Shown: positions 19,803-64,000, counted from the first letter of the stretch. The stretch is 64,000 bases of DNA from Haliotis cracherodii (GCF_022045235.1 NW_027266286.1:16182001-16246000), one strand, 5' to 3'. Notes: generated from the sequence alone by a model not told the origin. A program made the numbers and translations.

Positions 19803-19991
19803 CATATGTATATAGAGGGGTGTTATTGTTTTCTCTTTGCGAATAAAGTATGTCACACACGCTATCATCGAGTTCCTATGATACAGTGGTATGAAGGTCG
19901 TCATCTTAATGTAATAATGTTTTAAATTGTTTCAGACGGTCTGAAAAATGTCATAAGTCAGCCACCGAAAAATAAAAGCCTTGTTCTCGCC

Positions 19992-40005: not shown

Positions 40006-40008
40006 CAC

Positions 40009-42121: not shown

Positions 42122-42970
42122 CTACCATCTTTCATATTGTGCACTGATAAGAGACCCTACACTGTTGGCTCCAGGTCGGCACTGCGGAGCCAGTGCCAGC
42201 ATGGACATCAGTAGGTTGGCTTTCTCTATGTTAGTCACATGTGTAGTGACTGCGGAATTGATTTCTTCCTGGGGAGCATCTTTGAATAGCCTTTCAAGTC
42301 GGGTGACTGGAAACAGAAAAGTTTTACTGCCATCCTTGCGAGTTTGCAAGGAATGTATGGCATAGAAGACCATCCCAAGAGAGAAAATATCACATGCTTT
42401 GGTATAGTGACCAGAGTCAACCTCAGGAGCCATAAAAAGTGGGGTGCCAAAACCTGTATTCAAATAGTAGGTGGAGGACATTGTTGCCGTGTTACCAGAT
42501 GTAGAAAAGGTGAATCGAGCAAATCCAAAATCAGCTATCTTGCAGATGGGGACATTACCAGGTCGTGCTGCCAGCAGAATGTTGTCGGGTTTGATGTCTC
42601 TGTGGACGATGTTGTTTCTGTGGAGGTGGTGAATACCCTGAGCCATGTCAAGCATGAAACTGTTCACAGTTCCCTTGTTTGGTCTGTTAACTATCATGTA
42701 GTCATTCAGAGTCCCTAGGTCACAGTACTCCATTTGAATATTGATTTCATCATCTTGAGTCTTCCACGCATTGATCAACTCCACAATATTAGGGTGGTTA
42801 GGGCACGTTTTTAGTACCTTTATTTCCTTTTGAAGAGCTTCTTCATCTAGGTTGAGCCCTCTCTTCAGTTTCTTCACAGCATATGGTTTACCATCAATCA
42901 TCTCCAAGGACACAACACCAAATGTACCTTCTCCAAGTATTTGAGGCACTGGATTACATGCAGCCATCAT
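42122..42970 (-). CDS. PDIK1L/STK35-like Ser/Thr kinase K1 (~282 aa, uninterrupted CDS)
   Basis: GEGTFG, AVK, KE, MEYC, HRDIKPDN, DFG, GTPLFMAPEV, DIFSLG, RP all present; RPNKGTVNSFML and GHYTKACDIF resemble PDIK1L/STK35 from recall. Confidence 0.9.
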   Translation of the reverse strand: MMAACNPVPQILGEGTFGVVSLEMIDGKPYAVKKLKRGLNLDEEALQKEIKVLKTCPNHPNIVELINAWKTQDDEINIQMEYCDLGTLNDYMIVNRPNKGTVNSFMLDMAQGIHHLHRNNIVHRDIKPDNILLAARPGNVPICKIADFGFARFTFSTSGNTATMSSTYYLNTGFGTPLFMAPEVDSGHYTKACDIFSLGMVFYAIHSLQTRKDGSKTFLFPVTRLERLFKDAPQEEINSAVTTHVTNIEKANLLMSMLALAPQCRPGANSVGSLISAQYERW

Positions 42971-43141
42971 TTTGAGTTGCTCCTCGATGAACACGGATGT
43001 TGCTCTGACGTGTTGTGAGGTGGGTGTTCACCAGGTTGTATCTAATTTGGTACAGGGAGTGCAATGTAGAACGAAACCTGGTTGCTATTGTCTAGCTTTG
43101 AATAGCACAAGTTCACGGCCTAGTGGATGTAATTGAGAATA

Positions 43142-43200
43142 TTCAGAACTCATAGTGAAAGTAGCTATTGGCAAGGAAAATTTTTTCTAGGAAAATGACA
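43142..43200. promoter_or_regulatory. Conserved upstream block of K1 (IRF-like AGTGAAAGT + GAS-like TTCTAGGAA)
   Basis: Same block upstream of K2 at 56879-56935. Confidence 0.5.
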
Positions 43201-43368
43201 ATGAGCGATCTTTTTTTGAAAGTGTTGCCCTAGATGTTTGAATATCACACTTTTAAAAATGAAGTAGATTTTTTTTACGTTCCTATATCTATGTTGTAGC
43301 CGAGCGGCCTACATCATATGCATGCATTTCAGTATGTACAGCGGTTAGGCGATGCGGTGCATGAAATG

Positions 43369-43531
43369 AGGAGCGGTTTGGTAGCCTAGTGGTTAAAGCA
43401 TTTGCTTGTCACGCCGAAGACCCGGGTTCGATTCCCCACATGGGTACATTGTGTGAAGCCCATTTCTGGTGTCCCCCGCCGTGATATTGCTGGAATATTG
43501 CTAAAAGCGGCGTAAAACCATACTCACTCAA
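43369..43531 (+). mobile_element. SINE family C, near-consensus copy
   Basis: Intact tRNA head and tail. Confidence 0.9.
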
Positions 43532-43959
43532 TGTATATGAAATGTGAAGGTCTTATGCAACATAAAGTTGCCAGTAGCCTCAATGTTGTGAATACTGGTA
43601 TTTACAGCAACACATGTAAGTATTTATCAGATATATAACTGAGGGAAGTGAGAAATATTTTCAAGAAATTGTAAGAGAAACAGGCACTGTAAAATTATGT
43701 CATCAACTAGATATTTTGAACATACAATGTTCAAAATAATAGAAATGGAATCACTGAAATCTGTTTTGATATTCAAGGTTAAATTAGTGCATGTTGTATA
43801 AAAGGATTTTATGGATGAATGGTGGCTGTTTTTTGCCAGATACTACCATGATTATATTTTAATATGATAAATGAAAAATATATATCATTTTGGCCTTTTT
43901 TAGATTTTACAAAGTAGAAAATTATACATTTTTTCAGACACAGAGGACCCTACATATTA

Positions 43960-44290
43960 TTAGCTCACCGGGTCCGAAAGACCAAGGTGAGCTTATGCCA
44001 TACTGTGGTGTCCGCTGTCTGTCCGTCTGTCGTCCATTTTCTGTTGTCCATGTGTCAACAATTTATTCAAATGACTTCTTCTTCTGAACCACTAACAGGA
44101 AATTAACGAAATTTGACTGGAAGCATCCCTAGGTGGTGGGGATTCAAAATTGTACAAATGGTGGAACTGACCCCCCCAAGGGGCTGAGGGACGGGGCCAA
44201 ATAGGGGTAATTTGGCTATATTGCTGTAAGCAACTTCTCTGGAACTAAGAGATAGATATCAACCATATTTGGTTGGAAGCATTCTCCATG
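43960..44290 (+). mobile_element. Non-autonomous Helentron-associated (HINE/DINE-like) element fragment; similar architecture at 54415-54720 and 61538-61840
   Basis: TTAGCTCACC...GGTGAGCTT 5' hairpin followed by a (CTGT/CCGT)n microsatellite. Confidence 0.55.
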
Positions 44291-46239
44291 TGTTCAATTG
44301 AGAGTATAAGGAGAGGAATGCACATATGCTACAAGGACTAGCCCTTCTGTTCACCTGTCTGGCACTCCCAAAGAAGTTAGAACCTTGACCGTAACATGCA
44401 AACAGATATCCCCACCCTATAACAAAACAGATACATTGTATACATTTGTTTGTTATGAAGAGAATAATACCTTTATATGATTTATCCTAGATCATAACAT
44501 GGAAACCGTTCAGATCTTTATGTTACATTTGTATCTAAAGAAATACATGTTCATGGTGTCAGATTTGCCATCCACCCATTTTAAATGCGAGTCAAATTAC
44601 GAAATATTTGCAGTACCGTATTTGACATAATAAGCGCCCAGGGCGCTCTCAAAATTAGAAGTAGGGGGCTCTTATTAGAATATTATTTTGGTGAAAAAAG
44701 TTGAAAGATATATTTCGTGGTTTATGCTGACAACCTCAAGTGTTTATGAACGAAAGATATATTTTTCCAGAATTTAATTGCCCATAATTAAGGGTGCATA
44801 TAACACACCATTGATCAATGGAAAGGGTGCTAATTGGGATTATTCACTAGCCAATATATTAGCAAATATTGCCTTGGGCACTTATTAGAGTACTTATACC
44901 TCCTACAATTTTTATAAATTAAAACAATATATTCATTCTACCTTTCAATCTCTATAATGTTGATTGTATTAAAATTGCTGTGTCTACATCCAGTTTGCAT
45001 TGACAATAATCAGATGATTGTAACACAGATGAAGCTCATTCTTATTTTCATTAGGCCTTGCTTTTTATGTTTCCTTTTTCTAAACTGATGTTTCAAAATC
45101 CCACATAAACAAATAATAAATGTTATTCTATTTTCTCTTCACACCAACAGATATCTGCATTGCACAATGGCTGTTATTATTTTATTTAATATCTTGGCAT
45201 ACTTGTGCATGTGTACTAGTATTTGATTACACATGCATGACTTTTTAGCAGTCATTATCTGTTACTGAAGTGAATGTTATGTCAATAAAGACATCAATAT
45301 AAACATTTAAAAAAAGGATTCTGGTATTCTTTCATGTTTGGTGAATCAATGATTTCTTTGTGAAAACATTTTTCATTTCTTACATGAGATCAAAATAGAT
45401 CCAAATTAAAATAAGGAGATTAAATAATGAAGTCTAATTCATTTCAGTCAGTCTGAAAATTTAAGAAAAATAAACATTGCCTGAGTGAATCAGTCAATAT
45501 GCATATTGACTGAATTTTTCTGATTATAGACACTGACTGTAACATATGTAAGTATAATCTGTTATATGCAAAAACAAATACAGTCGTGACTCGTTTATAC
45601 GGACACTTGCGTCATTTCACAATTCGTCCGTATAAACAAATTTCCGTATAACTGAAACCAGCTTCTTACTGGAAGAGTTACTTCCCTTCAATTATGCAAC
45701 TCATGACAGATGACAGAGCAAACAGATACGTCCACTCAATCTTTATTCAAGACATACACATTTCAAAAAATCTCTCATGGAAGTTTGAACTTTACCACAT
45801 TTTGAGGTTTGAATTATAAACAATAATTCCAAATTGTCTAGATCGCCTGTGGGTGAAAATCTCAACACCGTAACAATTTCCCACTTGACCTGTACATCAG
45901 TAGTTTGTTTGCAGAAATGTGTTTTAAGATATTTGATTTCCTTTTCAAGACTATTTATAGGTAGCTTACCTTTCTTCAAATGTAAAATGCTAAAAAAATG
46001 TACTTTCAAGTTATTATTTGTTTGTTTAAAAGCAAATATTTTTCTGGATTTACTTTAAACATGGTTGTCAGCTGGACCAGAATAAAAAATATTACCTAAA
46101 CTATATCTAAATATAATAAAAATGTAACAAAGTTTGTTTTTCAGACTCTCAAATGAACCATTAATTACATGAATCCTATCATTATTATCTAAAACCTAAT
46201 TGGAAAAAAAATAAATGAGGAAAAAAAGATGTCACTCAA

Positions 46240-47715
46240 AAGGCACTCAACTCCGTTACAACGTACCAATACTAAAGAAATAAGTGCGCTATGGGAGATA
46301 ACTCTCATACGCTTCCTCATTTGGCAACATGTGTATGAAGTTCATCTGCTGGTGATAGATCGATGCCACATTTATGTACAATGTTCAAGCCAATAACATC
46401 AAGATATGTCTGTTAAGTACAGTATGTTTTCTAAGCCTCAACTCTGTTACACTGTCTATAGATCTACATCTCATTCTAATTTACTTCACTTTTCCAAGAT
46501 ATATTGGTTTGTAAGACCATGTTAACAATGAGTATTTTAATTTCCTTAAAAAGCAATTCATGGTGGGATATGAGCCATATGTATATATGAATATATAGTA
46601 AGGTTTCTCAACTCCGTTACACTCAACTCTGTAATGCTGTACAGCGTAATGGAGTGGAAATCTGTTGTTTTTCTGCACAATTTCGAAAGTTATTCCCAGT
46701 ACATAGCTTTGTTTTTCTTCAAGAATTCTTATTTTAACCCTATACCTGACAAATAATTTTCCCACAGTCAGTTATAAGAATTTTTTTTAAAAATTGTCAC
46801 TCAGACTACTCTGATGTTTCTGATGAACAAGATGTTATGACCTGCGCTAAATGTGGATTTGCTACTATTGATAGTGGTCTTTCAGACAGTATACTAATTA
46901 TTGAAGACAGAACTGTAGTTTGTCACATTGATGGGAGTGACTGGCTATGGTGCTTTGGCTGCAGAAAGCAATTTCATTATGTGTGTATAAAGAACATATT
47001 TGTGGCCAGTGTTGATGTTATGATTGATATGGACTTTGATAATTACAATTGTCAGTTTTGTAACTGTGATAGTGATCTAAAATGGCATTACAAGCAGCAT
47101 TGTGCTTATTTATTTCAACTACTATACAAAGGGTTGAACATTAGTAATTTCGTAAAACCACTTTTGTATGCCATTACTGCAGTAAGTGGCTAATAAACCA
47201 TGAGTACCAAAGTCCTAACAAGTAACACAATACAGTGCCTGTATTTTCATATTTCATCTCAAAAGGGATGAAAAGGTTGTTATTTCATGCTGCAGAGCAA
47301 TAACAAAATATATGAGTTACAACTCTGTTACAACAAACTCAACTCTGTTACTTCAGGATTTTTTTATAGATGATTTCTTTTGACAATTGACAAAAACATT
47401 TGTTGTTTTTATTAGTTTTAACATCAGATTATGATTAATGGTAATATATGTTGTGTCAAAAGATGAAAAATACTCTATTTTGGATAGTGTCTTTCATGTA
47501 AATGACTTTGTTGTCTAGGCAGACTTTTGAAATATTGAGGAAGCACTTACAAATGTCCAATCATACATTTTATTTAGCCAGTTTCCATTTGTATTAACAC
47601 TGAATTGTATTCGCACTTAATGTTAATTGTTGAATATGATTTTATATTTCAAAGCAACCTAGCGCTATTATAATTACTTTCCATTTTGTGACCCGTAACA
47701 GAGTTGAATGTCCTT
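46240..47715 (+). mobile_element. Non-autonomous TIR DNA element carrying a PHD-finger ORF (46837-47193)
   Basis: Imperfect TIRs AAGGCACTCAACTCCGTTAC / GTAACAGAGTTGAATGTCCTT; internal CAACTCYGTTAC repeats; ORF has CAKC...WLWCFGCRKQFHYVC...CQFC (C4HC3). Confidence 0.65.
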
Positions 47716-48490
47716 GCGGATTAGGCTAATTCATTAATTATTTTCTAATTAATTAAACACATCAATGCACTGCATTGATCTAGAAAGTACTTCACAAGTA
47801 TCATATCTCTTATATCAAGTGAAAAATTATATTAGGGACCCTTATTTTTTGGCAAGTTGATAATCAGAAAATTTGTCAGTTTTGAGATTTTTACCCCTGT
47901 GTTCTCGTAATATGTAATAAAGGTCTTTATTACTTGCCCGTGAAGAGATGACCCGTTTAATAAACATACAGCTTTATTACACATTGTGTAATACCAAAAC
48001 GTGTGCTTATGTACTCTCGGAACACGTTTCACGAAGAAATATTGAAAGCTCTCAACATCCCTTGGCTTATTCAACGGCATTGTGTGTGGAGATGATAGAT
48101 CACTGGGAGGAGCTTATGCACACTCGATGACCCCAGCAACCTTGTTGCTAGGCTGACGTCACATGGCATTGTTTCGCCGATGGATCTTGCAACAAAATTC
48201 AACAAATTACGTCATCGGCGATCATACTCTAGCGCAACGACAGTCGTTACCCTTAGAAGTTAAATTGTGTGAGTTGTGACAGCCTTAGCACTACGATAAT
48301 TTTGTGGGACGAACGCCTGAATTCTAAAGGTGGACCATTGTATGATATTAAATTCATACGTTTCAACTTTTGACGTGTTTGAAGTATTAGTCTGTTAAAC
48401 TCAATTGGATTATGCCATGGATCGTGTAGGTGTCAGCCTATTTACACTCAACAGTATAATCATAAAAACATTATAAATGACAAGTAATAA

Positions 48491-48640
48491 ATAAAATACT
48501 AAACTCGCTCTCGTGTAAAACCAATTTTATGAAACTCGTGAATAGTTGTGGTATCTGACTCGCTTTCGCTCGTCAGATACCACAACTATTCACTCGTTTC
48601 ATAAAATTGGTATTACACGGGAGCTCGTTTAGTATTCTAT
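48491..48640. repeat. 150-bp near-perfect hairpin element
   Basis: Arms 48491-48559 and 48571-48640 are reverse complements apart from a few defined mismatches. Confidence 0.9.
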
Positions 48641-49759
48641 ATCTATACAAGCACAAGCTTCCTCGCCCTATTTATCGAATGGGAATACATGTACAATAAA
48701 CAAGCTCTGTGTCACCTAATTGACTTCTTCATGTATCATACACATCTTGAGGGGTAGTTAGTATGATTTGTTGTTTGCTTTGACAAATCTCTGTCATTTA
48801 CTACTATTTTAAGAGCATGAGTATCAGAATTCTGTAATAAATGATTAATTAACACCTGTGCACTTAATGGTGGGACACATGTTATAAGGGCCAGAATAAT
48901 TTGGGTAAATCTCTTATTTCAAAGTATGATGACTAATATGTATATTGCAACTGAGTAACTGATTGCTTGATAGATGCATGGTAAAATTTCATTTGGCATA
49001 TTTCTAAAAAATAATGTCAGAATATAAATTTAAATATTCAGATGCAACATTAATTTTGATATAAAAAGTAAGATTCAAAATCAGTTCTTTTATCATTTTG
49101 AACGTTATTTCTTCTTAGCTATTTGTAAAGGCTTTGATGTATACTAACTGTATAGATCAGTGGTAAAGGCCTGTCAAAGATGTCTGTGTGCTTCAAATAT
49201 AGGCGTATCTCCAATTTTATTACATTGAAGTCCATGGTAGTATTTGTTGAGATTTGAATGCTTTGAATTGTGGTGGGAAATAACACAAAGGCTGATAAAT
49301 AAAATGAGCCTGCATTATTTCATCGATGCAATATGTTAGCCCAGACTGACAGAATGCCTCGCTGTTTTCTAACATAGAAAATACTGTGGCAATATATCTT
49401 TTTTCCCGCTATATTCCTTCATGACAATTTGTCTTTTAGATGAAGACTCAACAAATGTTGATATTATAAACTAATAATCACGACAAAGTATGTGCTAGTT
49501 CAAAATATTCACTTGTAAACGACCGTTTTTGAATGAAGGTGCAACAGGGTAACGCTTTCGCTTGGCTCCGTCTCTACATGTCAGTAGTTGTCGCAGTGCA
49601 CATTGATCCGAGGACCTGACCGGAAGCGACAGGTTAGACAGTCGCTTATATCATTTCAAAAGGAGAGTTATTGCCCTTTGGAACAAAAAGATCGCCCATT
49701 TGATAGCTATGAGTGGTTTGGCAAAATGTAATTTTTTCAGCTCATAAAATGGGCATCAA

Positions 49760-52340
49760 AATGTTTGAATATAGATTAAATGATAAATCCAAATGGGTGT
49801 GGTGAATGCATACAAACTAAAACCATTAGAAATGGCAAATTGATTTAAGTTTGTTTTTCTTAGCCTTTGGACTTTATATAGATATAAACATGTGTTATAA
49901 TGAAAATAATATAATGATGAAATAATTTCAGTAAAAGATGTTACAGTTTGAATCTTGATATACTGTTGATATACTGAATAACGCTCATATACAAGCATGA
50001 AATTCATCTTCAATAAAAGATCTACCATTTTCTATATAATATTTACATATTCGTTCAGTGTATGGGACATTTGTGTATCTCCCTAAATCAACTGCAAGTT
50101 TAAACTTGCTACATCTGAAACAAGTCATACATATTCTCAGATGTACTGGTATGGGGAGTGTAAGCTGTTTTTCTACATTTAACAGGGATTTAAAATGTTT
50201 ATAATAAAAGGTATCAGATATATACTAGCCACATAAAGAAACTGTGCACGGAGAAAATATAGATATTAGGGTACACCGTCCATATATGAAATATAGGCTT
50301 GAACACAGCAATTATTGGAGACATTCAAACGCTCATGCACGTGCCATGCGATATGACGTCATTGATGGGGACCTATGGACGTGCAATGTGTTACTGCACG
50401 TGCATCCTGTGCAGCTGTACACAGCATGTGCAACTCAAAATACGCTGTCACTTTGGAAAGCATGATCTGTGGTCATTCAAAAATTCAAAACTTCTCAGGC
50501 GCAGACACAAGCATATCACAAGCAAATCATGCCAAGATTGACAGCTGCACAGCGGCATGAAGCCATTGGAATGATCCGAGCGTAAATGAGGCAACAACAG
50601 GTGGCAACACATTTCCAATGCCATCGTAACACGATATCGGCATTGGTGAGGCGTTATCAGAACACAAATGACGTTGCCGACCACCAACGTTCAGGACATC
50701 CCCGAGGAACGACGCCAAGACAGGACCGATCGATTCGAGTTACACTTCTCCGACACAGGTTCCAAACGGCAGTAACGATGTTCCAGATAATTCCTGGACT
50801 GCGCCGTATCCATCCCAACACTGTCAGGAATCGTTTAGTAAGGGATTCGACCACGACGCCCTGCCATACGTCCCATCCTGACACACCGTCATCGAGTCAG
50901 CCGTCTAAGATGGTGTCGAAATCATGTCGAAATCACCTCGAATATGGTGGAGAAATGTTGTCTTTACAGATGAATCGAGGTTCAACATTTCCCACAGTGA
51001 CAGGCCCAACCTGTCTACCGGCGTTTGGGAGAACGTTATGCACGCAACTGTATTGTGAAGAGGAATCGTTTTGGTTGTGGCTCTATGATGATTTGGGGTG
51101 GGATAACAGCACGGCACCGAACCCCTTTGGTGGTTGTTCAGGTCAATCTCACCGGTGTTGGCTACAGAGATCAGATTCTGAGGCCTGTGGTCATTCCTTT
51201 CCTGCAACGTCATGGCCCGGGATTCACATTTCAACAGGACAACGCTCGTCCTCACAAGGCTAGGGTCGCAATGGATTTCCTTCACCATAACAATGTCATG
51301 TTACTGCCATGGCCAGCAAATTCTCTCCCCAATAGAGCATGTGTGGGATGAAATGGAGCGCCGTCTGCGTTGTCTTCCACATCCTCCAGATAACGTCCGT
51401 GACTTGGCACAGGATTTGAGGAGGATATGGCAGGCCATTCCCCAGGCATTCCATGCCCATTTGGTGGACTCCAAAGCGCGCTGATGCACTGCTGTGATTC
51501 ACGCACAGGGTGGTCATACCCGTTATTGACTTTGTGACTTTGTCGTTTGACCCCCTACTCCATTGTGATCTTCTGACGTCATCGTAACAGTTGTTGTTCA
51601 GTCCCGTTGACATTTTCTTATGGTCCGATCATTCAGCTGCTACAGCGTCTGCATCATTTTGTTCTTGCTGTGTTGTATTTCAATCCAGAATATATTTTCT
51701 CCGTGCACAGTTTCTTTATGTGGCTAGTATACTATTGATAGAACTACACCATGATTGTTGGAGGTTATCAAATAATCTTTGTTTAAAATGATGAATAAAT
51801 ATCTTCAATTTGCAAACATCTTGTGTTAACCATACATATCCAAAACCTAATTTAGATAAATGTGTAAATGGTTCTTAAATACAGGTAAAACAACAAACAA
51901 TGCTTTGGTTTTAGTAGAGTGTAGTAGAACCCCTCTCCAACTTGTGTATACCACAAGGGCCATCAAGTATTGGTGCAGGCTACTTCGTTTGGATGAGCAC
52001 AGAGTGCCTCGCCAATGCTATTTAATGCTCAAATCACTGGACCATTCTGGTCACACCACATGGGCTACTCACATTAAGAATATTTTTATTCTGTACGTCT
52101 TCAATAATCTTACAATATGAGATACCGTATACCTCTGCGCCGTAACAGACAATAGGCACAGTCATAGCATCAAATATCTTAAATAAATCTTCACAGGGTA
52201 TATTACCAACTTTCTTTTGATATCTATATAATGTCATAATAGCCTTGTTACTCTGTGCAGCAAGAGTATTTAGTGACTTAGTCCAAACAAGTTTGGGCGT
52301 GAACACAATACCCAAATATCTTAAAACGACACACTTTCAA
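49760..52340 (-). mobile_element. Decayed LINE ORF2 3' portion, split by the Tc1 insertion and containing an internal ~230-bp inversion
   Basis: Reads KYLGIVFT...EDVQNK (minus), CKWFL...THIKNI (plus), LSKLGFGYVW...WCSSINS (minus), then after the Tc1 FYYKHFKSLLNVEK...RICKY...IEDEFH (minus). Confidence 0.8.
50223..51729 (+). mobile_element. Tc1-family DNA transposon, full length, transposase pseudogenised (50529-51529)
   Basis: Perfect 39-bp TIRs TACTAGCCACATAAAGAAACTGTGCACGGAGAAAATATA with TA TSD; HTH N-terminus, RSGHPR, VFTDESRF, FQQDNARPH, SPIEHVWD split by a stop and frameshifts. Confidence 0.95.
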
Positions 52341-53280
52341 TGTATACAAAATATCTGTTGACAACCAGTTGGCGGTACAAATGATTTGCAAATCCTGCAA
52401 TCGACCAAAATTTGCACCACAGTTTACGAACTGGATTTCGATTTCGTTACGCGATTGTGATTGGAGTATGCATAGACTCGTTAGTCCAGCCAAAACGTAA
52501 CTCAATAATACCAGCGTAGTTCGGCAAGGGTGGAAACTGGACTTTTATCGTCAGTTAACTCTCTTGCCTCGGGAAGATGCATATAACCAGCAATAGCAAT
52601 CAGCTATGCCAAAATGCTTCCCTTTATGTTTCACGATTTTACGTAATAGTACATGCTGCAACTAAAATAACACAAAATTGATGAAGCATGCTTAATTGGA
52701 TAATTACACAAGCAGGGTCAAAATTCCTGGAATGAGGCAATTCTTGGGGATCACGCAAAACATTTGTGTCATCCAAGGAGTGGGCAGTTCCTTAAGTTAC
52801 GCATTAACTCAATACACTTCCTGAGTATTCGTCTGATGAAGTGGCAAGAAGTAGCCCTGATATGTCGTTACAAAGAATAATGATGTTGTTATCCATAAAA
52901 CATTAAAAAGATCCATGTCTTCATGTCTTGTGTTAGTTGATAATTGTTGGAAAAAAGTGAGCACTTACTATACTCAATACCCCTTTGACTCACCATGAAA
53001 AGACAACAGTGTATGCAAAGATTTTCCTGTTTGACCCTAGTTTCAAATTCTTTAGGAATCAGATTAGCCCTGTCCAGAATCATGCATATTGAAACAGTTC
53101 AGTGTGATTAATTGTAATTCTGGGTCGTGGAGTCATTTGAGCTTACTTCATGATACCGCACACAACAAAATAGGGAAAATTTTGAAAGATTATTTGTATG
53201 TGCAAAAGATGTCCTCATACAAGTAGCTAAGTTATCAGTTATATAATTGTGGGTTGGCACATGTGACCTAACAGATAGAT

Positions 53281-53543
53281 TGTTGTTTGTTGTTTAACAC
53301 TACACTCAGCAATATTCCAGCTATATGACGGCGGTCTGTAAATAGTCGAGTCTGGACCAGACAATCCAGTGATTGACATCATGAGCATCAATCCACGCAG
53401 TTGGGAGACGATTACATGCATCAACCAAGTCAGCAAGCCTGACCACCCGATCCCGTTAGTTGACTTTTACAACAAGGATAGTCGCCTGTTACGGCAAGCA
53501 TGGGTTGCTGAAGACCTATTCTACCCCGAATCTTCACGGGTCC
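53281..53543 (-). mobile_element. Family B full copy
   Basis: Ends precisely at CTTCACGGGTC, the family's 5' terminus. Confidence 0.85.
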
Positions 53544-55738
53544 CTACTCCCTAACAGATAGTGAAAAGGGTGTGCTAAGGTGTTGGAAACTATTAGGATT
53601 TAAATAAAACATTAATTATAGATGTGTAGATGGGTGTGTGCATAATAGGTTTATGATGCTTTTTCTCCCACTCAAAAACATTATTGTGAGCACCTGTTAT
53701 TGATCCTGTTATTAGACTAATGTTATATATATATGTGTTCTTCGCAGATCTGGACTTATGGTCTTATGGTTGTAATCTATTTGATTAATTATCTTCAAAA
53801 TTTCATTCGATATTGTTTACATTAAATATTGCTAAATCGTCTGTGAACTGACGAGCAGACCAACTCACCATTATTTACAGCAACGACAATCAGATGAATG
53901 CTATTGACGCCTTGATAAGAACCTTGGTCATTTGACTACAATGTATCATATGTCAATAAAATGTTTTTGGGTTCAAAATGGCTAGATGTAAAATATAACC
54001 ATCTTCTACAAAGAATAATGATGTTGTTATCCATAAAACATTAAAAAGATCCATGTTTTCATGTCTTGTGTTAGTTGATAATTGTTGGAAAAAAGTGAGC
54101 ACTTACTATACTCAATACCCCTTTGACTCACCATGAAAAGACAACAGTGTATTGAAAGAGTTTGTCTAAACTTTATTGAAAAAGATTATGCATTCATTGG
54201 CAAAATACATAATGCAAACACTGACAAGGATAACAATTTAACTCGGAAGAGGAGCTGATGAATATGTAGTGAATACAAAGACAGGACTACAATAATAATA
54301 TAACAATAGCAGGGTTATATGCAAAGCAGAAATATGCAAAATATATATTGGGCACAATAATATTCATAGTTTCAAGTTCTTGAAAAGAAATACAAAGGTC
54401 CTGTAATTAAGAGATTATTATCCTCCGCCACAAAGTGGGGCGGGGATGTAGGAACAGAGTTCCTCCGTCCGTCCTTCCATCTGTCCATACGCTTCTCAAA
54501 GGAGACACATTTTCGCAAAAACTATTTAAGTCAGAGAAATGAAATTGTACACACTGATGTTACTGGTCAAGATCTCAAATGAGTTCAAAATTGGAGTCGT
54601 AAACTCATTTTTTACAGAGTTATGGCCCTTGCTCCATGATTTTCAACTAAATGCATACTGCGTGAAATGGGGACAAGTTTTCTCAGCAACTGCTGAAGTT
54701 AGCTTATCTACTGGTACTTAAAGAGAGTTATTTTGTCCAGAGAGGGGCCTTTTGTGTGGATTAATTTCACATTTAATCTTTTTTCTGACGGCATAAAGCA
54801 GCCCAAGTGCCTAACTCTTCTTATGGCTTTATAGAACTCTTTTTTTATAGTTTATTTCACTATATGAACAAACAAAGTTCTAATGAGTCTCATTGCGAGG
54901 CATAGTGATAACGCTGTTGTCTTGTTTCACCAGCTCTACACCATTTCATTACTTTACAGGACCCTTACCTTTCCTGAAAGGACCCTTAAAATTAGAAATT
55001 GGGGCCCTCTGGACCCCTAGTTTGAGGTCAAGGTGAAACCCTGCAATAAGCCCTTCAAAATTTCAGTAGAGGACACACTGGGTAGGTAGTTGCCTTGGTC
55101 GCTGTTAATGGCTGGCTGTCTCTGGAGTTCTATATAACAAGCACTTTAAAGCTCCAGAAGCAGTTTTCTTATTGGCTAGTATCGACTTCTTGTCAGTCAT
55201 TTCATTGGTTGTCAAAGTTTGCAAAGGTTCTGACGTGACCCGTAATGGGATGTCCTCAGATTTTTCTTTAGCAGTATAAAGAACTAAGATTTCATTTGAT
55301 TGAGACTGAATGCACCCAAGTACATAGATCAACATATAAAGGTCATATATCAACTGTGATAAACGTGATAGCTTCCGTAGTTCACACTGAATTCAGAACT
55401 CAAAGTGAAAGTAGCTGTGGTGTTATAAAAGATCAAGTCAGTTTGGTGAGTATGAGTACCATAGTAGGAAATACATGGACACTTTCTAAACATATTATTT
55501 TAACTGATACATTCAAAATGGATGTGGTGATTTACCAAGTTATGAAGTAACAAAACAAATTAAGCGTACCTGCACAAGTAGTTTTACATGAACTATCTAA
55601 ATAACATTATGAAGTATAAATGAAGTGGCGAAACTACTGGTTTAGTCTCAAGACCCTCATGCCACTGACAGTCTAGTTCCATACTTTGTTTACCAATAAA
55701 TGGTTATGAAGTAACAAAACAAATTAAGCCAGGCTGCA

Positions 55739-56590
55739 TTAGTCAATTGTAGCTTTGTATGAACTGATAGTAGACTCTACGGTGTCGGCTCCAGGTCGGA
55801 CATGTGGATCCAGTGCCAGCATAGACTTCAGCAGGGCGGCTTTCATGCTGTTGGACACATGTTTTGTGACAGCGCTCTCGATCTCTCCTTGACTTGCTTG
55901 ATGAAACACTTGATTTGATTTTGGGATGACTGGCCACAGTAGAGTACGAGTGCCGACGTTGTCGGTTTCTAGAGAATGCATGGCGTAGAAAACCACCCCA
56001 AGAGAGAAAATATCACATGCTTTGGTATAGTGACGGAAGTTAACCTCAGGAGCCTTAAAAAGGTGAGTGCCACAACCTGTATTCAAATAGTAGGTGGAGG
56101 ACATTGTTGCCGTGTCACCAGATGTAGGAAAGGTGAATCGAGCAAGTCCAAAATCACCAATCTTGCAGATGGGGTCATTATCAGGTCGTGCTACCAGCAG
56201 AATGTTGTCGGGTTTGATATCTCTGTGGGTTATTTCTTTGTTATGGAGACTGTGAATACCCCGAGCCATGTCAAGCATGAAATTAAATATAGTTCCCTCC
56301 CCTGGTCTGTTTTTAATCATGTAGTCATTCAGTGTTCCAAGGTCACAGTACTCCATTAGAATTTCGATCTTACCATGTGACTTCTGCACATCAAACAATT
56401 TCACAATATTGTCATGATCAAAGCACGCCTTTAGTGTACTTATTTCCCTTATAATACCTCTTTGATCTAGGTCGGACGTCTTCAGTTTCTTCAGGGCATA
56501 TAGTTGACCATTAATCGTCACCTTGTACACAACACCGAACTGACCTTCTCCAAGTTTTTCATGTACTGTATAACTTTGTTCAGCCGCCAT
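55739..56590 (-). CDS. PDIK1L/STK35-like kinase K2 (283 aa, uninterrupted CDS)
   Basis: AAGATGGCG start; GEGQFG, ALK, RE, HRDIKPDN, DFG, APE, DIFSLG all intact. Confidence 0.9.
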   Translation of the reverse strand: MAAEQSYTVHEKLGEGQFGVVYKVTINGQLYALKKLKTSDLDQRGIIREISTLKACFDHDNIVKLFDVQKSHGKIEILMEYCDLGTLNDYMIKNRPGEGTIFNFMLDMARGIHSLHNKEITHRDIKPDNILLVARPDNDPICKIGDFGLARFTFPTSGDTATMSSTYYLNTGCGTHLFKAPEVNFRHYTKACDIFSLGVVFYAMHSLETDNVGTRTLLWPVIPKSNQVFHQASQGEIESAVTKHVSNSMKAALLKSMLALDPHVRPGADTVESTISSYKATID

Positions 56591-57919
56591 CTTGAGTTGC
56601 TCCCTGATGAACACGGGTGTTGTGGATGCTCCTGCTCACACACTTTCTCAGAACACGAGATTTTCCCAGCAGCCCCACTTCCGACATGCGCAGTGGGACT
56701 AGCTTAGCAGACGATATATCAACATGCAACACATTTTCTTTTCATTTTTTCTTCGTTATTTGCGAGCACAGAAGTCAGTGTCAAACATTGTTCATAAAAA
56801 TCTGTAAAGTGTTTTCAAATATATTTGAGGACTTTTTAACTTATATTTAACAGAATTACGGAGTAACTGAGAATATGCTCAGAACTCATAGTGAAAGTAG
56901 CTATAGACATGAGAAATGTTTTCGAGGAAAATGAGAATTTGATAGCTTGGTGTGGTTCAGCGAAATGTAATTTTATCTGGTTATACAATGGACAATGTGT
57001 AAGTGGTACATCCAAATGTATGTGGCGCATGTTTAGCTTATGACTAGAAGTCCTGGATTTTTTAAGTACTTGTTGATCAATTTCTTGCTAATGCAATACA
57101 CTTTAATGTAGGATTCTTTTCACAATATTAAACATTGATGTCTGTATTTACGTATATGTGTATCCCATAGATATGATAAGTATCTTAAATGAATTTATGT
57201 TAAGAGTTATGTTAAAATGTTAAAACTGTCAAATTTAGTCAAGCATGCCATCCTAATATTAACACAGTCAGTCTATTGTATGTCACGAAATTGGTGGTTG
57301 TTCAGGGATGTCCAGTGTTCAAGTTTAGTTTGCTGTAAGGCACAAACAACAAACGATATATGTGAATGTAAGTCAGCCTGATACAGATGTGAAGCCTCCA
57401 TGGACTTAAACTGACTGTAAGTTTTCAATTTACTCCAATATGGAAATAGACAGGCAGACAATTGTTTTTAGTAACAGGCCACTGGCCTATAATACTTTAA
57501 TATAGCATGACAATTCAACCCTTAAAAATAGAAAATTTCTACTGGTCCTAATGGTATTGGTCTGAAACTATTGGGCAGTTTGGTAAGGACTAGTGCCGAT
57601 TTCTATCGCCCAAGCACGCACGTAAACACGCACGCACCCACCCAGGCACACACGCATGCACACAGTTCAGTGTAATATGGCGAGATATTTTCTTCCTGTC
57701 GTAGCATATTATTTACATATGAACATCACATGGTATTTATCTTCAATATATTTACAGTTTTTGGACAAACAAATCGCAGAATCATTGATTGTGGGCAGTG
57801 TAGCTGTGTTCAACATATATTTGTATTGAACATAGAAATTACATTTTGAGGATAATTCCATTGAAGAATAGCAGTTTTGATACAGGTTAACTGATAGTCT
57901 TTGCTGAAAGTCATTAAGG

Positions 57920-58330
57920 AACAGTGTTATATCACTGATTTCTTGCAGTAACCAGACCAGCCCAAGCTGAACAAAATGGTTTTAATTGATGTAATCCATG
58001 TCCCTCTTCCCACCTCATCAAGTGCTTTGACAACAAAAAGGCTTGACATGGTAATCTGTAAAGTTGAGATGAAGAAGTCTGCACCAATATTTTACTGCTC
58101 TTGCTTACGGCGTTTTCCTCAGCGTTTTCCTTCCCTCTGTTGCTCCTGACAATTGCCTTCTTATTAATGTTCATGATCGGCCATTTTACCCCTTTCCTGA
58201 TAGACATTATCAAGGGACTCCAGATTGTTTGGGTTTTGCATCGCATTGACAGAGATTTCCCATTTCCAAATTATTTACATATATCCAAAATGTTTAGATG
58301 TATCAGATATAATAGAGATATCTTTGCTTG
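57920..58330 (-). mobile_element. Degenerate LINE ORF2 fragment
   Basis: AVKYWCRLLHL...LDEVGRGTWITSIKTILFSLG is similar to the LINE segment at 51860-52085. Confidence 0.6.
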
Positions 58331-59189
58331 TACATTGGTCCCGTCACGCCTTTTACAGGGAACTGGCTGCACATACACCGTTATCTCTTCGGAACGCGGG
58401 ACACTGTTTCGTTCATCTGCTCTACAGTTCCTTCGCTGTTGATCATGTGATGGAGGTGTGTGGAGTTTTTCACCACAAGCTAGACTAACCTGGTTCCCAG
58501 CTCCCTATGCATGTCATCAACTTGTGCTATGAGAGACAGGCTTAGCTTAAAGCAACACAAGACTGATTTGCCTACCTTAAAACGTTTGCGACCATCGGCG
58601 CATTACAAGCTTCGAGTAGCCATGAAAGGAGAGGATACCGGTCTAGGCAAGTATACAGTATTCTCTCCGCCGGCGCAGAAAAGGTTTTGCATATCCTGTG
58701 TGAGGTTATTTTCCCTGGATTGTAAACAAACCTGCTTATCTTGGAATGAGGCACCGATAACCAAACGTGAGCCGGTCGGCACTGTTTATTTACTGTGGTA
58801 GACGTGACAGTAAGTAGATCAACATTGATTTATACCTCACAGTGTCTCAATCGCTAACTTTTGGTTCGACCTCAATGTCGTGACAACATTTTCACTGTGC
58901 TTAGTTTGGAATCATCGCTTTATTTCCACAGGATTGACCCTGCTTTGTTGATCAATTATATGGTCAGTCTCGGCCTACATGATGCAACTTCGATGTTTAC
59001 AGTGTTTTTTGCAACTTTTCCTTCAGAAATGTGATTAAAAGACCTAGGAGTGATGTGAAATTGTTCCCACCATCGCCTGACCCAACCAAATACCTTTTTG
59101 TTGACGCCTCAACAGTGGGTTGGGGAGCTTATTAACAGGATCTATAAGTGGCAGGGTGGTGAAATATCCCCTTACAGTTCAAAGCAGAG

Positions 59190-59355
59190 AGGGGCGGACG
59201 GGTAGCCTAGTGGTTAAAGCGTTCGCTCATCACGCCGAAGTCCCAGGTTCGATTCCCGACATTGGTACAATGTGTGTAGCCCATTTCTGGTGTCCCCCGC
59301 CATGATATTGCTGGAATATTGCTAAAAGCAGGGTAAAACCATACTCAGTCAGTCA
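59190..59355 (+). mobile_element. SINE family C
   Basis: tRNA head and tail; flanking CAAAGCAG direct repeat. Confidence 0.85.
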
Positions 59356-62300
59356 AAGCAGTGATCTTGTCAGTGTCTCATAGGGCGACACTTCTTCACT
59401 ACTCCATTTCATGGTCGGAAAACCTATCCGTTGTCTGGTACATAACGTCTATGTCACTACTGTCTCTGGCGTTTAATTCTTCTCTACTGATCGACTCACT
59501 CAAGTCCAGAAGAGGCACATCCCCCAGCGCCTCCAAAATCAAAGCTGACTCACTGTCCAGAACCAACAAACCATCTCCCAAGGAATGGCGCCTACATCCA
59601 ATGATTTGCACCGACATCAATCTCTTTGCAACCCCCTTCACCGCTCAGCTATCCCGGGGGTATATATCCCATTCCCCACCCTCAGGCTTGTGACCACAAC
59701 ATGTCAGCACTATTACGGGAGGGCCTTCATACTTACACCTTACCCCCAACCGCTGTTTTACCTCGGGTATTGCAGAAGAATGCTTCCACTATTCATCTCT
59801 CCCTGTTCTTGATCGAGTCCTTTGGGCTTACTTGGAGTTTGTTCACCTCGCTCATCCAACTCGCAGACAGATGGTTTTATCATCTACTTCTAAGAGTCGA
59901 CCTTCTCCTTCAACTTCACTCTCAGTTGCCTCACCGGTCGCTCGACACACCTAATCTGTGCGTTTGGTGCATTTACAAAATCCCTTGTGCGAAGGGTTGC
60001 TCTAGACGGGTAGTTTTAATCCATCTCGCAGGTTTACAGATCGTCAACCAAGTCATTATACAACCATATTAAAGTGGAAGGCTATTGAGGCCTACTCGCA
60101 TGCGCGGGATATTTCTACACCCGCTACTGCTTCTCCACAACAGATTGGAGAATATCCTTACCATCTCCGGCAGTTCCCGGAAGAGGCTCTTTTCCTGCTC
60201 TTTGCCGCAGCGGTAACGGAAGTACCCCATACCACGATTTAGTTCTAGATTCTCAGGATATTCTCCAAACCTATTTATTTGCCGCCCTACCTACCCCTGT
60301 TGCCTTCAGCCAACACAAAACTCGTGTTGTCACTTTTACACAGTAATTGTACTAATGGCTGGAATTCCTGGGCTCGATCGTAGCGCGACCAGTGGCTATT
60401 ATGAGTTATGTCCCTTCTATGCCTCTCCTATGGACAAAACAGATTCCACCTCTCGTATCACTTGCATTTGCTTCCAACTATTAAAATGGCAGTGCCCAGT
60501 CAACACGATCTGATCGATAATCAAGATCTATATTGTGATAAAACGGGTCTTACATCATGAAATGCATCAAATCACGAGAGCACCTTGATTAAAAACATGA
60601 AAAGATTTGAAAAATATCTGTTGACAACGAGTTGGCGGTACAAATGATTTGCAAATCCTGCAGTCGACCGAAATTTGCACCACAGTGTACGAACTTGATT
60701 TCGATTTCGTTACGCGATTGTGATTAGACTCTGCATAGACTCGTTAGTCCAAAATACCAGGCTAGTTCGGCAAGGGTGGAAACTGGAATTTTATAGTCAG
60801 TTAACTCACTTGCCTCCGGAAGATAAATATAACCAGCAATTGCAATCAGCTATGCCAAAATGCTTCTCTTTATGGTTATACGATTTTACATAATAGTACA
60901 AGCTAAAACTAAAATAACACCAAAATTGATGAAGCACGCTAAATTGGATAATTACACAAGCTGGGTCAAAATTCCTGGAATGAGGCAATTCTTGGGCATC
61001 ACGCAAAACATTTGTGTCATCCAGGGAGTGGGCAGTTCCGTAAGTTGCGCATTAACTCAATACACTTCCTGAGTATTCGTCTGATGAAGTGGCAAGAAGT
61101 AGTCCTGATATGTCGTTACAAAGAATAATGATGTTGTTATCCATAAAGCATTAAAAAGATCCATGTCTTCATGTGTTGTGTTAGTTCATAATTGTTGGAC
61201 AAAAGTGAGCACTATACTCAATACCCCTTTGACTCACCATGAAAAGACAACAGTGTATGCAAAGATTTTGTCTAAACTTTATTGAAAAAGATAATGCATT
61301 CATTGGCAAAATACATACTGCAAACACTGACAAGTATAACAATTTAACTCGGAAGAGAATCTGATGAATATGTAGTGATGGGCCTTGGAGTGAATACAAA
61401 GACAGGTCTACAATAATGATATAACAATAGCAGGGTTATACGCAAAGCAGAAATATGCAAAATATATATTGGGCACAATAATATTCATAGTTTCAAGTTC
61501 TTGACAAGACATACAAAGGTCCTGTAATTAAGAGATTATTATCCTCCGCCACAAAGTGGGGAGGGGGATGTAGGAACAGAGTTCCTCCGTCCGTCCTTCC
61601 ATCGGTCCATACGCTTCTCAAAGGAGACAATTTTTCTCCAAAACTATTTAAGTCAGAGAAATGAAATTTTACAAACTGATGTTACTGGTCATGATCTCAA
61701 ATGAGTTCAAAAATTGGTGTCGTAACTCATTTTTTTACAGTGTTATGGCCCTTGCTCCATGATTTTCAACTTAAAGCATACTGCGTGAAATGGGGACAAG
61801 TTTTCTCAGCAACTGCTGAAGTTAGCTTATCTACTGGTACTTAAAGAGAGTTATTTTGTCCAGAGAGGGGCCTTTTGTGTGGATTAATTTCACATTTAAT
61901 CTTTTTTTCTGACGGCATAAAGCAGCCCAAGTGCCTAACGCTTCTTATGGCTTTATAGAACTCTTTTTTTATAGTTTATTTCACTATATGAACAAACAAA
62001 TGAGCCCCATTGCGAGGCATAGGGATAACGCTGTTTTCTTGTTTCACCTTACAGTACAGCTCTACACCATTTCATTAATGTACAGGACCCTTACCTTTCC
62101 TGTAAGGACCCTTGAAATTAGAAATTGGGGCCCTCTGGACCCCTAGTTTGAGGTCAAGGTGAAACCCTGCAATAAGCCCTTCAAAATTTCAGTAGAGGAC
62201 ACACTGGGTAGGTAGTTGCCTTGGTCTTTGTTAATGGCTGGCTTCCATCTCCTGAGTTCTATATGACAAGCACTTTAAAGCTCCAGAGGCTGTTTTCTGA

Positions 62301-62853
62301 TTGGCTAGTATCGACTTCTTGTCAGTCATTTCATTGGTTGTCAAAGTGCGCGAAGGTTCTGACGTGACCCGTAATGGGATGTCCTCAGATTTTTATTTAG
62401 CTGTATAAAGAACTAAGATTTCATTTGATTGAGATTGAATATACCCAAGTACATAGATCAACATATAAAGGTCATATATCAACTGTGATAAACGTGATAG
62501 CTTCCGTAGTTCACACTGAATTCAGAACTCAAAAGTGAAAGTAGCTGTGGTGTTATAAAAGCTCAAGTCAGTTTGGTGACTATTAGTACCATAGTAGGAA
62601 ATACATGGACACTTTTTAAACATATTATTTTAACTGATACATTCAAAATGGATGTGGTGATTAACCAAGTTATGAAGTAACAAAACAAATTAAGCGTAGC
62701 TGCATAAGTAGTTTTACATGAACTGTCTAATTAACATTATGAAGTATAAATGAAGTGGCAAAACTACTGGTTTAGTCTCAAGACCCTCATACCACTGACA
62801 GTCTAGTTCCAAACTTTGTTTACCAATAAGTGGTTATGAAGTAACAAGACAAA

Positions 62854-63717
62854 TTAAACCAAGCTGCACCATGTAGATTGCCATGAACTGATAGTAGACT
62901 CTACGGTGTCGTCTCCAGGTCGGACACGCGGCTTTAGTGCCAGCATAGACTTCAACAGGGCGGCTTTCTGTCTGTTGGACACATGCGTCGTGACTGCGCT
63001 CTTGATCTCTCCTTGACTTGCTTGATGAAACACTTCACTTGAATGTGGGATGACTGGCCACATTAGAGTATGAGTGCCGGCGTTGAAGGTTTGCAAAGAA
63101 TACATGGCGTAGAAGACCACCCCAAGAGAGAAAATATCACATGCTTCGGTATAGTTACCAGAGTCAACCTCAGGAGCCATAAAGAGGGGGGTGCCACAAC
63201 CTGTATTCAAATAGTAGGTGGAGGACATTGTTGCCGTGACACCAGATGTAGGAAAGGTGAATCGAGCAAGTCCCAAATCTGCAATCTTGCAGATGGGATC
63301 TCTGAGAAATCGTGCTACCAGCAGAATGTTGTCAGGTTTGATATCTCTGTGGACGATACCGTTGTCGTGGAGACCCTGAATACCTCGAGCCATGTCAAGC
63401 ATGAAATTACATATAGTTTCCTCCCCTGGTCTGTTTTGAATCATGTAGTCATTCAGCGTTCCAAGGCCACAGTACTCCATTAGAATATAGACCTCATCAT
63501 TAGAGATCAGCTCATCGAACAATTTCACAATATTGTCATGATCAGCGCACGCCTTGAGTGTTCTTATTTCCCTCATAATACCTGTTTGATCTAGGGAGGG
63601 CGTCTTCTTTAGTTTCTTCAGGGCATATAGTTGACCATCAATTGTCACCTTGTACACAACACCGAACTGACCTTCTCCAAGTTTTCCATGGTCTATGTAA
63701 CTTTGTTCAGCCCCCAT
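62854..63717 (-). CDS. PDIK1L/STK35-like kinase K3 (287 aa, uninterrupted CDS; DLG instead of DFG; N-terminal MGAEQS, C-terminal CSLV)
   Basis: The ATG at 63717 is positionally homologous to the K1 and K2 starts; catalytic residues intact. Confidence 0.9.
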   Translation of the reverse strand: MGAEQSYIDHGKLGEGQFGVVYKVTIDGQLYALKKLKKTPSLDQTGIMREIRTLKACADHDNIVKLFDELISNDEVYILMEYCGLGTLNDYMIQNRPGEETICNFMLDMARGIQGLHDNGIVHRDIKPDNILLVARFLRDPICKIADLGLARFTFPTSGVTATMSSTYYLNTGCGTPLFMAPEVDSGNYTEACDIFSLGVVFYAMYSLQTFNAGTHTLMWPVIPHSSEVFHQASQGEIKSAVTTHVSNRQKAALLKSMLALKPRVRPGDDTVESTISSWQSTWCSLV

Positions 63718-64000
63718 ATTGAGTTGCTTCCTGGTGAACACGGGTGTTGTGAATTCATATGATATAGTTAGCCTCAAGTTTGTAATTGATATCTTTCCCC
63801 TAACAACCAAGCCTCGTTCTCAAGTGCGACCTACAAACAGTAATTACAATTTGCTAGCAGATGACATATTCACTCTCTAGTTTCTGTCAGCTGGATAATC
63901 AGGTTTCTACTAAAACAACTGTATTTTTGTACTTTTATTAGTTTTCCATGTTACGAAATATATTCACTGAATATAATTATGCTTTTCACCTGATAATAAG

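Follow-up and report, generated by a model that had tools for sequence, protein, structure and literature searches.

In a 64,000-nucleotide stretch of the Haliotis cracherodii genome (GCF_022045235.1, NW_027266286.1:16182001-16246000; hereafter the window), six-frame translation reveals, on the minus strand, three uninterrupted single-exon open reading frames for small Ser/Thr kinases, K1 to K3. Two of these, K2 and K3, belong to a duplication in which divergence of the entire coding sequence (CDS), at silent sites too, exceeds that of the flank; the CDS is thus either older than the flank or faster mutating. K1 (42122-42970) encodes 282 residues, K2 (55739-56590) 283 and K3 (62854-63717) 287. 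All three are nested antisense in intron 3 of a FAAP100-like host gene: its first three coding exons (residues 1-380 of 805) lie on the plus strand at 31952-35331, intron 3, from 35332 onward, extends beyond the window end, and residues 381-805 are absent from the window (0 of 419 seven-residue words in six frames, against 363 of 374 in the control). Beyond the window the same contig carries two more close copies, XP_071112996.1 (P0002) and XP_071114531.1 (P0005), which makes five and bears out the local amplification proposed in the initial annotation of this sequence. Three cluster copies are named in Haliotis rufescens, copy number thus seemingly being unequal between the species. The H. 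rufescens orthologue of K1, XP_048240630.1, differs at 13 of 282 residues, and no named H. rufescens counterpart of K2 is found among the matches listed.

The collinear duplication of K2 and K3, correctly recognised at the outset, joins 52348-56627 to 60611-63754 and reaches from some 32 nt ahead of the ATG to over 2 kb beyond the stop. The 3' flank of K2 (52348-55738) and its partner beside K3 (60611-62853) diverge by 4.4-6.2%; the K2 copy additionally contains a 1.1-kb segment bounded by a 157-bp direct repeat. In the CDS the two genes differ at 101 of 840 positions (12.0%), as against 71 of 1615 in the flank (4.4%; p=1e-11) and 37 of 598 in the distal flank (6.2%). Earlier hand counts over two short spans hold up on alignment, with 4 differences and 1 gap in 119 non-coding sites and 19 differences in 120 coding sites, the latter span (15.8%) exceeding the CDS mean; the 63 or so protein differences counted by hand are computed as 63 of 283. 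Divergence changes at position 55718 (support 55654-55739; twice the log-likelihood ratio 49.8, maximum of 300 permutations 16.2), and the support interval contains both the present stop codon of K2 and the ancestral one. The stop-codon region is itself repeated 164 bp downstream with a CaaX-like end (CRYA or CSYA before a stop; 55539-55594 and 55703-55743 at K2, 62669-62725 and 62833-62890 at K3); K1 has a single copy only, and the repeat may be a remnant of another gene end.

The step in divergence is not confined to amino-acid change. Four-fold degenerate sites differ at 14 of 108 positions (13%), three times the flank rate (p=5e-4; p=0.024 relative to the distal flank), and about 60 of 540 zero-fold sites do so (11%; zero-fold versus four-fold, p=0.36). 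Pairwise estimates give dN 0.11-0.14 and dS 0.14-0.16 (site-model dS 0.11-0.18), with dN/dS 0.75-0.94, and dS amounts to 2.5-4 times the flank distance (Kimura two-parameter, 0.045-0.065). Restricting the count to the 121 columns that are invariant in six outside sequences leaves dS at 0.126 (10 of 86 sites) and dN at 0.037. Because silent sites are raised as much as amino-acid sites, the contrast between coding and flanking DNA is no evidence of positive selection; the initial annotation had taken it as the signature of such selection and had supposed the excess specific to amino-acid change, and neither claim is supported. The pattern that it had named as refuting selection, a raised dS with dN/dS well below 1, is found in its first half, while dN/dS lies near 1.

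Codon models, fitted with our own code rather than codeml to 267 codons of three DNA sequences, do suggest selection at a subset of sites. The likelihood ratio test (LRT) of M1a against M2a gives 32.6, with 29% of codons at an omega of about 4.5, and the statistic is 15.9 after correction for multi-base changes, 10.2 for site-rate variation, 6.5 for both and 8.6 with trimming plus multi-base changes, two further variants in the series giving 16.4 and 22.1. The whole-gene omega is 1.0 (M0), dN/dS is 0.75-1.04 across three pairs and four methods, and no pairwise or whole-gene value exceeds 1 by a clear margin. The kinase core is under purifying selection, in line with the fixed catalytic residues first noted: dN/dS is 0.29 at the 121 fixed columns and 1.12 at the remaining 150, and 98 of 271 columns are invariant across all ten clade proteins. 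Placed by hand on a structure model, the candidate sites fall in the beta3-alphaC loop, alphaC, the beta4-beta5 hairpin, the ends of alphaD and alphaE, the beta7-beta8 loop and a C-lobe insert. The cluster proteins also evolve fast relative to neighbouring genes, in line with the initial reading. Between H. cracherodii and H. rufescens, cluster genes differ at 13 of 282, 13 of 307 and 29 of 289 residues (4.2-10%), FAAP100 at 17 of 805 (2.1%) and the paralogue P0011 at 4 of 306 (1.3%); against H. asinina the corresponding values are 33% (96 of 290), 20.5% and 13.1%.

The relationships among the copies point to an old coding split. K3 differs from P0002 at 46 residues, from H. rufescens P0004 at 47 and from K2 at 62-63 (78% identity), and the tree K2,(K3,(P0002,P0004)), with supports 99/95 and 100/96, makes K3 sister to P0002 of H. 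cracherodii and P0004 of H. rufescens. Nine of 13 polarised shared changes unite K3 with P0002, along residues 2-238. Since K3 groups with P0002/P0004 and not with K2, the K2-K3 coding split predates the species split. A K3 assembled from P0002-like and K2-like parts with a breakpoint inside the gene is rejected, as K3 goes with P0002 over residues 2-238 and the CDS shows an even level of nucleotide divergence along its length. The 5' flanks are mosaic: K2 has an upstream element in common with K1, and the K3 leader reads SYEF like the N-terminus of P0005. Within the activation segment, K1 and K2/K3 are identical over 41-42 nt, a hint of sequence exchange (permutation p 0.011-0.014, uncorrected).

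By every residue test K1 to K3 are eukaryotic Ser/Thr protein kinases, predicted to be active: they match PF00069 at 162-169 bits and carry the G-loop, beta3 Lys, alphaC Glu, HRD-x-K-x-x-N, DFG-type motif (DLG in K3), APE, alphaF Asp and alphaH-alphaI Arg, K2 retaining K34, E49, HRD, N129, DFG, APE, D193 and R265. The structure model (predicted local distance difference test, pLDDT, 78; predicted template modelling score 0.83) matches kinases at a template modelling score of about 0.7, the activation segment 152-174 having pLDDT<50. It had been claimed that catalytic residues and activation segment are fixed; the former are intact, and ATMSSTYYLNTG is invariant only among K1-K3, P0002 and P0004: in H. 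rufescens the K1 orthologue reads ATKSS, and the P0005 branch departs at about half the positions. Of 37 protein matches at E<=1e-20, the eight with more than 55% identity are all Haliotis or window proteins, followed by Haliotis paralogues at 36-43% and other animals at no more than 41%; a profile search adds no further close member among the 120 matches listed. Close relatives are thus known from these searches only in Haliotis, and the family appears to be Haliotis-specific. A search against all representatives returned mainly multi-kinase proteins, and the 10 of 150 rows looked up yielded four more Haliotis paralogues. In a 32-row tree of named sequences, without vertebrate references and without P0040 (one residue from P0007), the clade (100/100) branches in unresolved order with other Haliotis paralogues, Patella, Lingula and Branchiostoma, and the STK35-like rows of cnidarians stand apart (72/76). 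Searches of solved structures and folds return generic kinases, with no STK35/PDIK1L entry among the 60 and approximately 45 matches listed; an Atlas search of K3 gives generic kinase clusters at 0.99 and a cnidarian PDIK1L-like cluster second; and all NCBIfam matches fall below cut-offs.

The resemblance to STK35/PDIK1L (NKF4) appears only loose. STK35/PDIK1L kinases are reported to be nuclear and to form a complex with the phosphatase SCP4. They share with the abalone copies a small Ser/Thr kinase domain, named invertebrate STK35/PDIK1L-like proteins are among the best non-abalone matches, and several clade members are labelled pdik1l-B-like, although NCBI labels within the clade are inconsistent (also Nek6/7-like and cdc2-inhibitory kinase-like) and identity to those invertebrate proteins is 30-37%. 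As described in PMC2737284, the vertebrate genes are conserved and have 1-3 introns (8 in Ciona), and STK35L1 is nuclear, whereas the abalone copies are tandem, fast evolving and equipped with lipid-anchor motifs, each CDS being one uninterrupted reading frame. One-gene-per-orthologous-set conservation fails as well, with five copies on a contig and branches differing at 38-40% of residues; the conserved, low-copy baseline assumed in the initial annotation is therefore not applicable, given also several other divergent Haliotis paralogues (P0149/P0282, P0198, P0199, P0009/P0010/P0041 and P0011/P0042/P0044). Among these, P0149 and P0282, which share contigs with P0008 and P0007, have a hydrophobic anchor-like end, and P0011 and P0199 myristoylation-type starts; membrane anchoring thus seems to differ across the wider Haliotis family. 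In P0007 and P0008 (H. rubra and H. asinina), KPSN, DAG and APD replace KPDN, DFG and APE, and this western Pacific branch possibly comprises weak or pseudo-kinases. The nested intronless position fits the suggested retroposition, or insertion; no poly(A) remnant was noticed by eye and no intron-bearing parent was identified. Literature searches on pdik1l in abalone or oyster and on Haliotis kinase expansion or STK35 found no published account of this family, and the text and two supplementary files of a 2026 black abalone selection paper (PMC13229213), whose gene list may be in other files, contain neither "pdik" nor "kinase".

The copies differ in their predicted lipid anchors. A CaaX-type tail, with Cys at the fourth position from the end and an aliphatic a2 residue (CSLV, CSLA, CNLV or CTLV), ends seven of the ten clade proteins (K3, with CSLV, and P0002, P0004, P0005, P0038, P0007 and P0008) and is absent from K1, K2 and P0039. 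The earlier statement that no copy has a stop or frameshift is right for frameshifts and internal stops, but K2 stops five codons early and K1 before a YCTKS-stop remnant, each dropping the tail. Behind the K2 stop an intact, in-frame CSLA and its stop remain readable (…ID-stop-CSLA-stop; 55724-55738, minus strand), coinciding with the divergence change point, and K2 has lost its CaaX through a nonsense change. The in-frame YCTKS remnant behind the K1 stop (42104-42121, minus strand) is, from the family alignment, probably a decayed CaaX tail; the H. rufescens orthologue, judged by its protein end, also stops before the tail. At the other end, K3 (MGAEQS), P0002 and P0004 start with MGA(E/Q)QS, which matches a myristoylation pattern and which K1, K2 (with Ala2) and P0005 lack. 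K3 would accordingly carry a myristoylation motif plus CaaX, the P0005 branch CaaX only, and K1 and K2 neither. No signal peptide is seen by eye at the N-termini, and the exact CaaX tails of the family are not named in PMC11152559. Unique to K2 are His176 and Lys179 of its P+1 loop (GTHLFKAPE for the family's GTPLFMAPE), along with NFR for DSG after APE.

K1 and K2 also have homologous upstream elements on the minus strand, 85.5% identical over 76 nt, at 43129-43202 (about 160-230 nt before the K1 ATG) and 56863-56938. Each combines a gamma-activated sequence (GAS) of consensus TTTCN3GAAA, as given in PMC10287828 (43184-43194 and 56920-56930), with a core resembling an interferon regulatory factor (IRF) site (43152-43162 and 56888-56898), the GAS lying 22-23 nt from the IRF-like AGTGAAAGT; within these motifs the two copies differ solely in the GAS spacer. 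The full GAS consensus occurs three times in the window (2.0 expected), two of them in this element, and among 30 GAS and 23 IRF-like sites only these two form pairs at that spacing. K3 has neither site in its 283 nt of upstream DNA within the window. Molluscs possess an IRF/STING pathway (PMC8218723). From these motifs K1 and K2 are candidates for STAT/IRF induction. A 26-bp copy of the IRF-like part (AAAGTGAAAGT) lies 3' of K2 at 55391-55416, with the K3 counterpart motif at 62532-62542 and no GAS beside either. Nearby, the conserved 3' flank at 55165-55285 and 62295-62415 shows by eye a pair of CCAAT boxes together with a TGACGT site and TATA-like words, part of it matching 35790-35840; a promoter here, whether antisense or left from a lost copy, could constrain the flank.

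Taken together, these data are best, if tentatively and at somewhat less than an even chance, accounted for by an inducible immune kinase family under birth-and-death evolution, with an old CDS, a homogenised 3' flank and functionally diversified copies. Haliotis-specific single-exon kinases would expand in tandem inside FAAP100 intron 3, copies being born and lost. The K2 and K3 CDS would be old paralogues, and their common 3' flank younger, homogenised by gene conversion or unequal crossing-over that halted at the stop codon; the diverged CDS would resist exchange, and exchanges erasing copy-specific residues would be selected against, leaving a "peak of divergence". With the kinase core kept, the varying surface loops, K2 P+1 loop and predicted anchors probably led to retention of copies for different cell sites and partners, most plausibly in STAT/IRF-induced innate immunity, where the kinases would act on or bait pathogen proteins at membranes or in the cytosol. 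Of this account, the copies, their nesting, the step in divergence, the raised dS, the constrained core and the motif differences are directly observed; flank homogenisation, positive selection, lipidation, inducibility and the immune role are inferred. That the kinases constitute a class of undescribed mollusc immune effectors, STAT/IRF-induced pathogen-facing enzymes or decoys diversified by anchor switching and by rewriting of the P+1 and surface loops, with selection keeping the CDS out of the homogenised repeat, is a bolder and rather doubtful proposal.

Several observations weigh against this explanation. The K1 and K2 elements, being homologous, represent one event; the IRF pattern was picked after the element had been seen, its second half-site deviates from the consensus of the interferon-stimulated response element (ISRE), and canonical GAAANNGAAA is not enriched in the window (6 against 4.1). 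No clustering of K1-shared states indicative of conversion tracts from K1 to K2 or K3 is found (42 against 33, runs p=0.46). The site-model LRT falls to 3.1 (p=0.21) with gap-adjacent codons removed under rate variation and multi-base changes, and 5 of 60 data sets simulated without selection attain 32.6. Positive selection on K1-K3 is likely, suggested by the site models rather than demonstrated. A neighbouring SOCS-box gene (19926-20918) also differs at 13 of 309 residues (4.2%) from H. rufescens, a divergence of 4% thus not being unique to the cluster.

The silent-site pattern bears most directly on an alternative that we consider unlikely, though less so than the other rivals of the preferred explanation, namely the initial reading with a mutational addition: a single duplication of K2/K3, dated by the flank (about 4.5-6%), with non-synonymous sites evolving 2-3 times faster under positive selection and silent sites inflated by gene-body transitions through methylation and multi-base changes. 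The silent excess consists of transitions only (11 transitions and 3 transversions in 108 four-fold sites, 25 and 46 in 1615 flank sites), and the equal transversion rate of 2.8% at four-fold sites and flank fits the same age with faster coding mutation, zero-fold transversions reaching 5.7%. Zero-fold differences lie far above the flank expectation (p=1e-8), 23 of 70 CpG-context coding sites differ, the observed-to-expected CpG ratio of K1 is 0.29, adjacent differences number 25 against 12 expected, and silent changes are commoner beside changed codons (10/50.7 against 10/102.8 sites, p=0.12). A two-fold gap recurs for K1 (flank 0.13-0.15, dS 0.28-0.45), for which the preferred explanation would need a second homogenisation. 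Yet non-CpG four-fold sites still differ at 9 of 96 (9.4%) against 4.0%, the constrained columns retain the high dS given above, K3 is sister to P0002/P0004 rather than K2, and homology stops about 32 nt before the ATG, which leaves no single clean duplication unit. The transition/transversion ratio of the flank is itself low (54105-55735; 0.54, 25:46) against 1.11-1.31 in four of five other repeat pairs in the window. CpG decay fails as sole cause, an excess remaining after it is accounted for, and silent changes accompanying amino-acid changes show a trend only (p=0.12 and 0.08). Dating does not decide: a published clock of 4.3 million years and mutation rate (10.1101/2024.09.16.613283) give a species gap of about 0.022, a scale on which flank and protein tree agree (K2-K3 path 0.283, P0002-P0004 0.103). 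Corrected for dating on the whole conserved CDS the gap would be about 0.045, making dS fit instead, and the intron distances of 0.059-0.068 reported in PMC2704960 between pink abalone and H. discus lean towards this larger time scale. On balance we modestly favour a CDS older than the flank over one that mutates faster.

Relaxed constraint, marginally less probable again than a single duplication, would dispense with an arms race: redundant copies drift outside the core, flanks are homogenised by chance exchanges stopping where sequence has diverged, and CaaX loss and the K2 P+1 changes are early decay. It is consistent with the M0 omega, the omega of 1.12 at variable columns, the loss of significance under the strictest null, the missing K2 counterpart among named H. 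rufescens matches and the KPSN, DAG and APD changes in P0007/P0008. It is opposed by the lack of frameshifts and internal stops in every one of the ten clade proteins, across a split that predates the East/West Pacific divergence, by the K1 CaaX loss common to H. rufescens, which has persisted in an intact gene, by conservation of the upstream element between K1 and K2, and by the five of six corrected model variants that remain significant. Very improbable is the derivation of K2 and K3 from long-maintained balanced alleles of a single locus, brought side by side through unequal crossing-over or through an assembly error merging haplotypes: allelic recombination would also yield a coding peak, raised dS and similar flanks, and copy number apparently differs between species, but flank divergence clearly exceeds H. 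cracherodii diversity (a pi of 0.0103) and the heterozygosity of 1.56% (HiFi assembly with purge_dups, if the same assembly), the 5' flanks are unrelated, and P0002, the sister of K3, lies on the same contig. Reproduction as the driver, through testis or sperm kinases comparable to abalone lysin and VERL and otherwise as in the preferred explanation, is improbable, if less so than balanced alleles. Intronless nested gene copies are often testis-expressed. Abalone reproductive proteins evolve fast (PMC2704960); however, K1-K3 display no gamete-type sequence feature, no signal peptide by eye, and an upstream element matching GAS and IRF-type motifs. Of the two roles initially proposed, the immune one thus gains some sequence support and the gamete one none.

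The locus is real and somewhat out of the ordinary; the contrast between its coding and flanking DNA belongs to a known type of signature. Paralogues under gene conversion can be more alike in non-coding than in coding DNA, as described for human red/green opsins and Drosophila CG18281/CG17637 in PMC3924837 and PMC2588116; K2/K3 divergence is similarly high in the gene, silent sites included, and low beside it. Those peaks, however, cover a few hundred bases around a few sites with conversion proven by orthologues, whereas the K2/K3 plateau is the whole CDS and is seen in paralogues of one species. Further parallels are analogies of working, not membership. In bat GBP5 a premature stop removed the CaaX and left the tail legible beyond it (PMC13128109), bat OAS1 lost its prenylation (PMC10683996), and composite GAS plus ISRE promoters occur in vertebrate interferon-stimulated genes (PMC10287828). 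Duplication, fast evolution, CaaX loss by an early stop and, putatively, a promoter of GAS plus IRF/ISRE type are common to these effectors and the abalone kinases; the folds are unrelated, and induction and antiviral activity are shown there, the abalone proteins being known from sequence. In plants, Pto is an intronless, myristoylated kinase. In tomato, the stand-alone kinases Pto and Fen are paralogues with about 80% identity, and pathogen effectors are encountered through their P+1 loop (PMC5091034); K2 and K3, at 78% identity, likewise diverge in their P+1 loops; Pto/Fen are derived from plant receptor-like kinases and work with the nucleotide-binding leucine-rich repeat protein Prf, and no such partner is seen in the abalone window.

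The remainder of the window contains repeats and several other genes. An element with terminal inverted repeats 3' of K1 (40008-40549), apparently a miniature inverted-repeat transposable element, has partial copies at 52348-52579 and 60360-60824; the K1 copy is 13.5-15.6% divergent from the K2 and K3 copies, and these differ by 7%. Between K1 and K2 lies a decayed transposon (50208-51745), presumably Tc1/mariner-like, with 51-bp terminal inverted repeats (50212-50261 and 51691-51740) and weak helix-turn-helix matches. A 1.35-kb tandem duplication (26947-28300 and 28531-29897, 90% identity) served as a transition/transversion control. No Rfam match to structured RNA was found at 35000-64000, and an Atlas search of the FAAP100 exon was uninformative. 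Two single-reading-frame SOCS-box genes (PF07525) stand head to head at 15996-17120 (minus) and 19926-20918 (plus), without other Pfam domains, and beside a kinase array might possibly act as Cullin adaptors. A 532-codon reading frame with a 17-residue tandem repeat and no Pfam match (11592-13187, plus) is followed by a divergent single-exon kinase (13640-14806, plus; PF00069, 60 bits) with a hydrophobic C-terminal stretch and 24-34% identity to the cluster family; a span tried from 11592-14806 had no match in the protein collection.

The locus offers a clean case of a CDS that remains distinct within an apparently homogenised repeat, the boundary falling sharply at the stop codon, in which selection-blocked exchange and faster gene-body mutation can be distinguished with existing abalone genomes. 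It also carries a caution, that coding DNA evolving faster than its flank is by itself no evidence of positive selection. What is new here, the anchor switching, the altered K2 P+1 loop and the GAS plus IRF-like element of K1 and K2, leads to a testable immune hypothesis. If it is true, kinases would join the effectors whose membrane targeting switches during evolution, on the bolder proposal as an animal counterpart of the plant Pto/Fen logic combined with the prenylation switch of GBP5 and OAS1, and the cluster would provide a specific candidate for cell-level immunity in a critically endangered species struck by epidemic disease.

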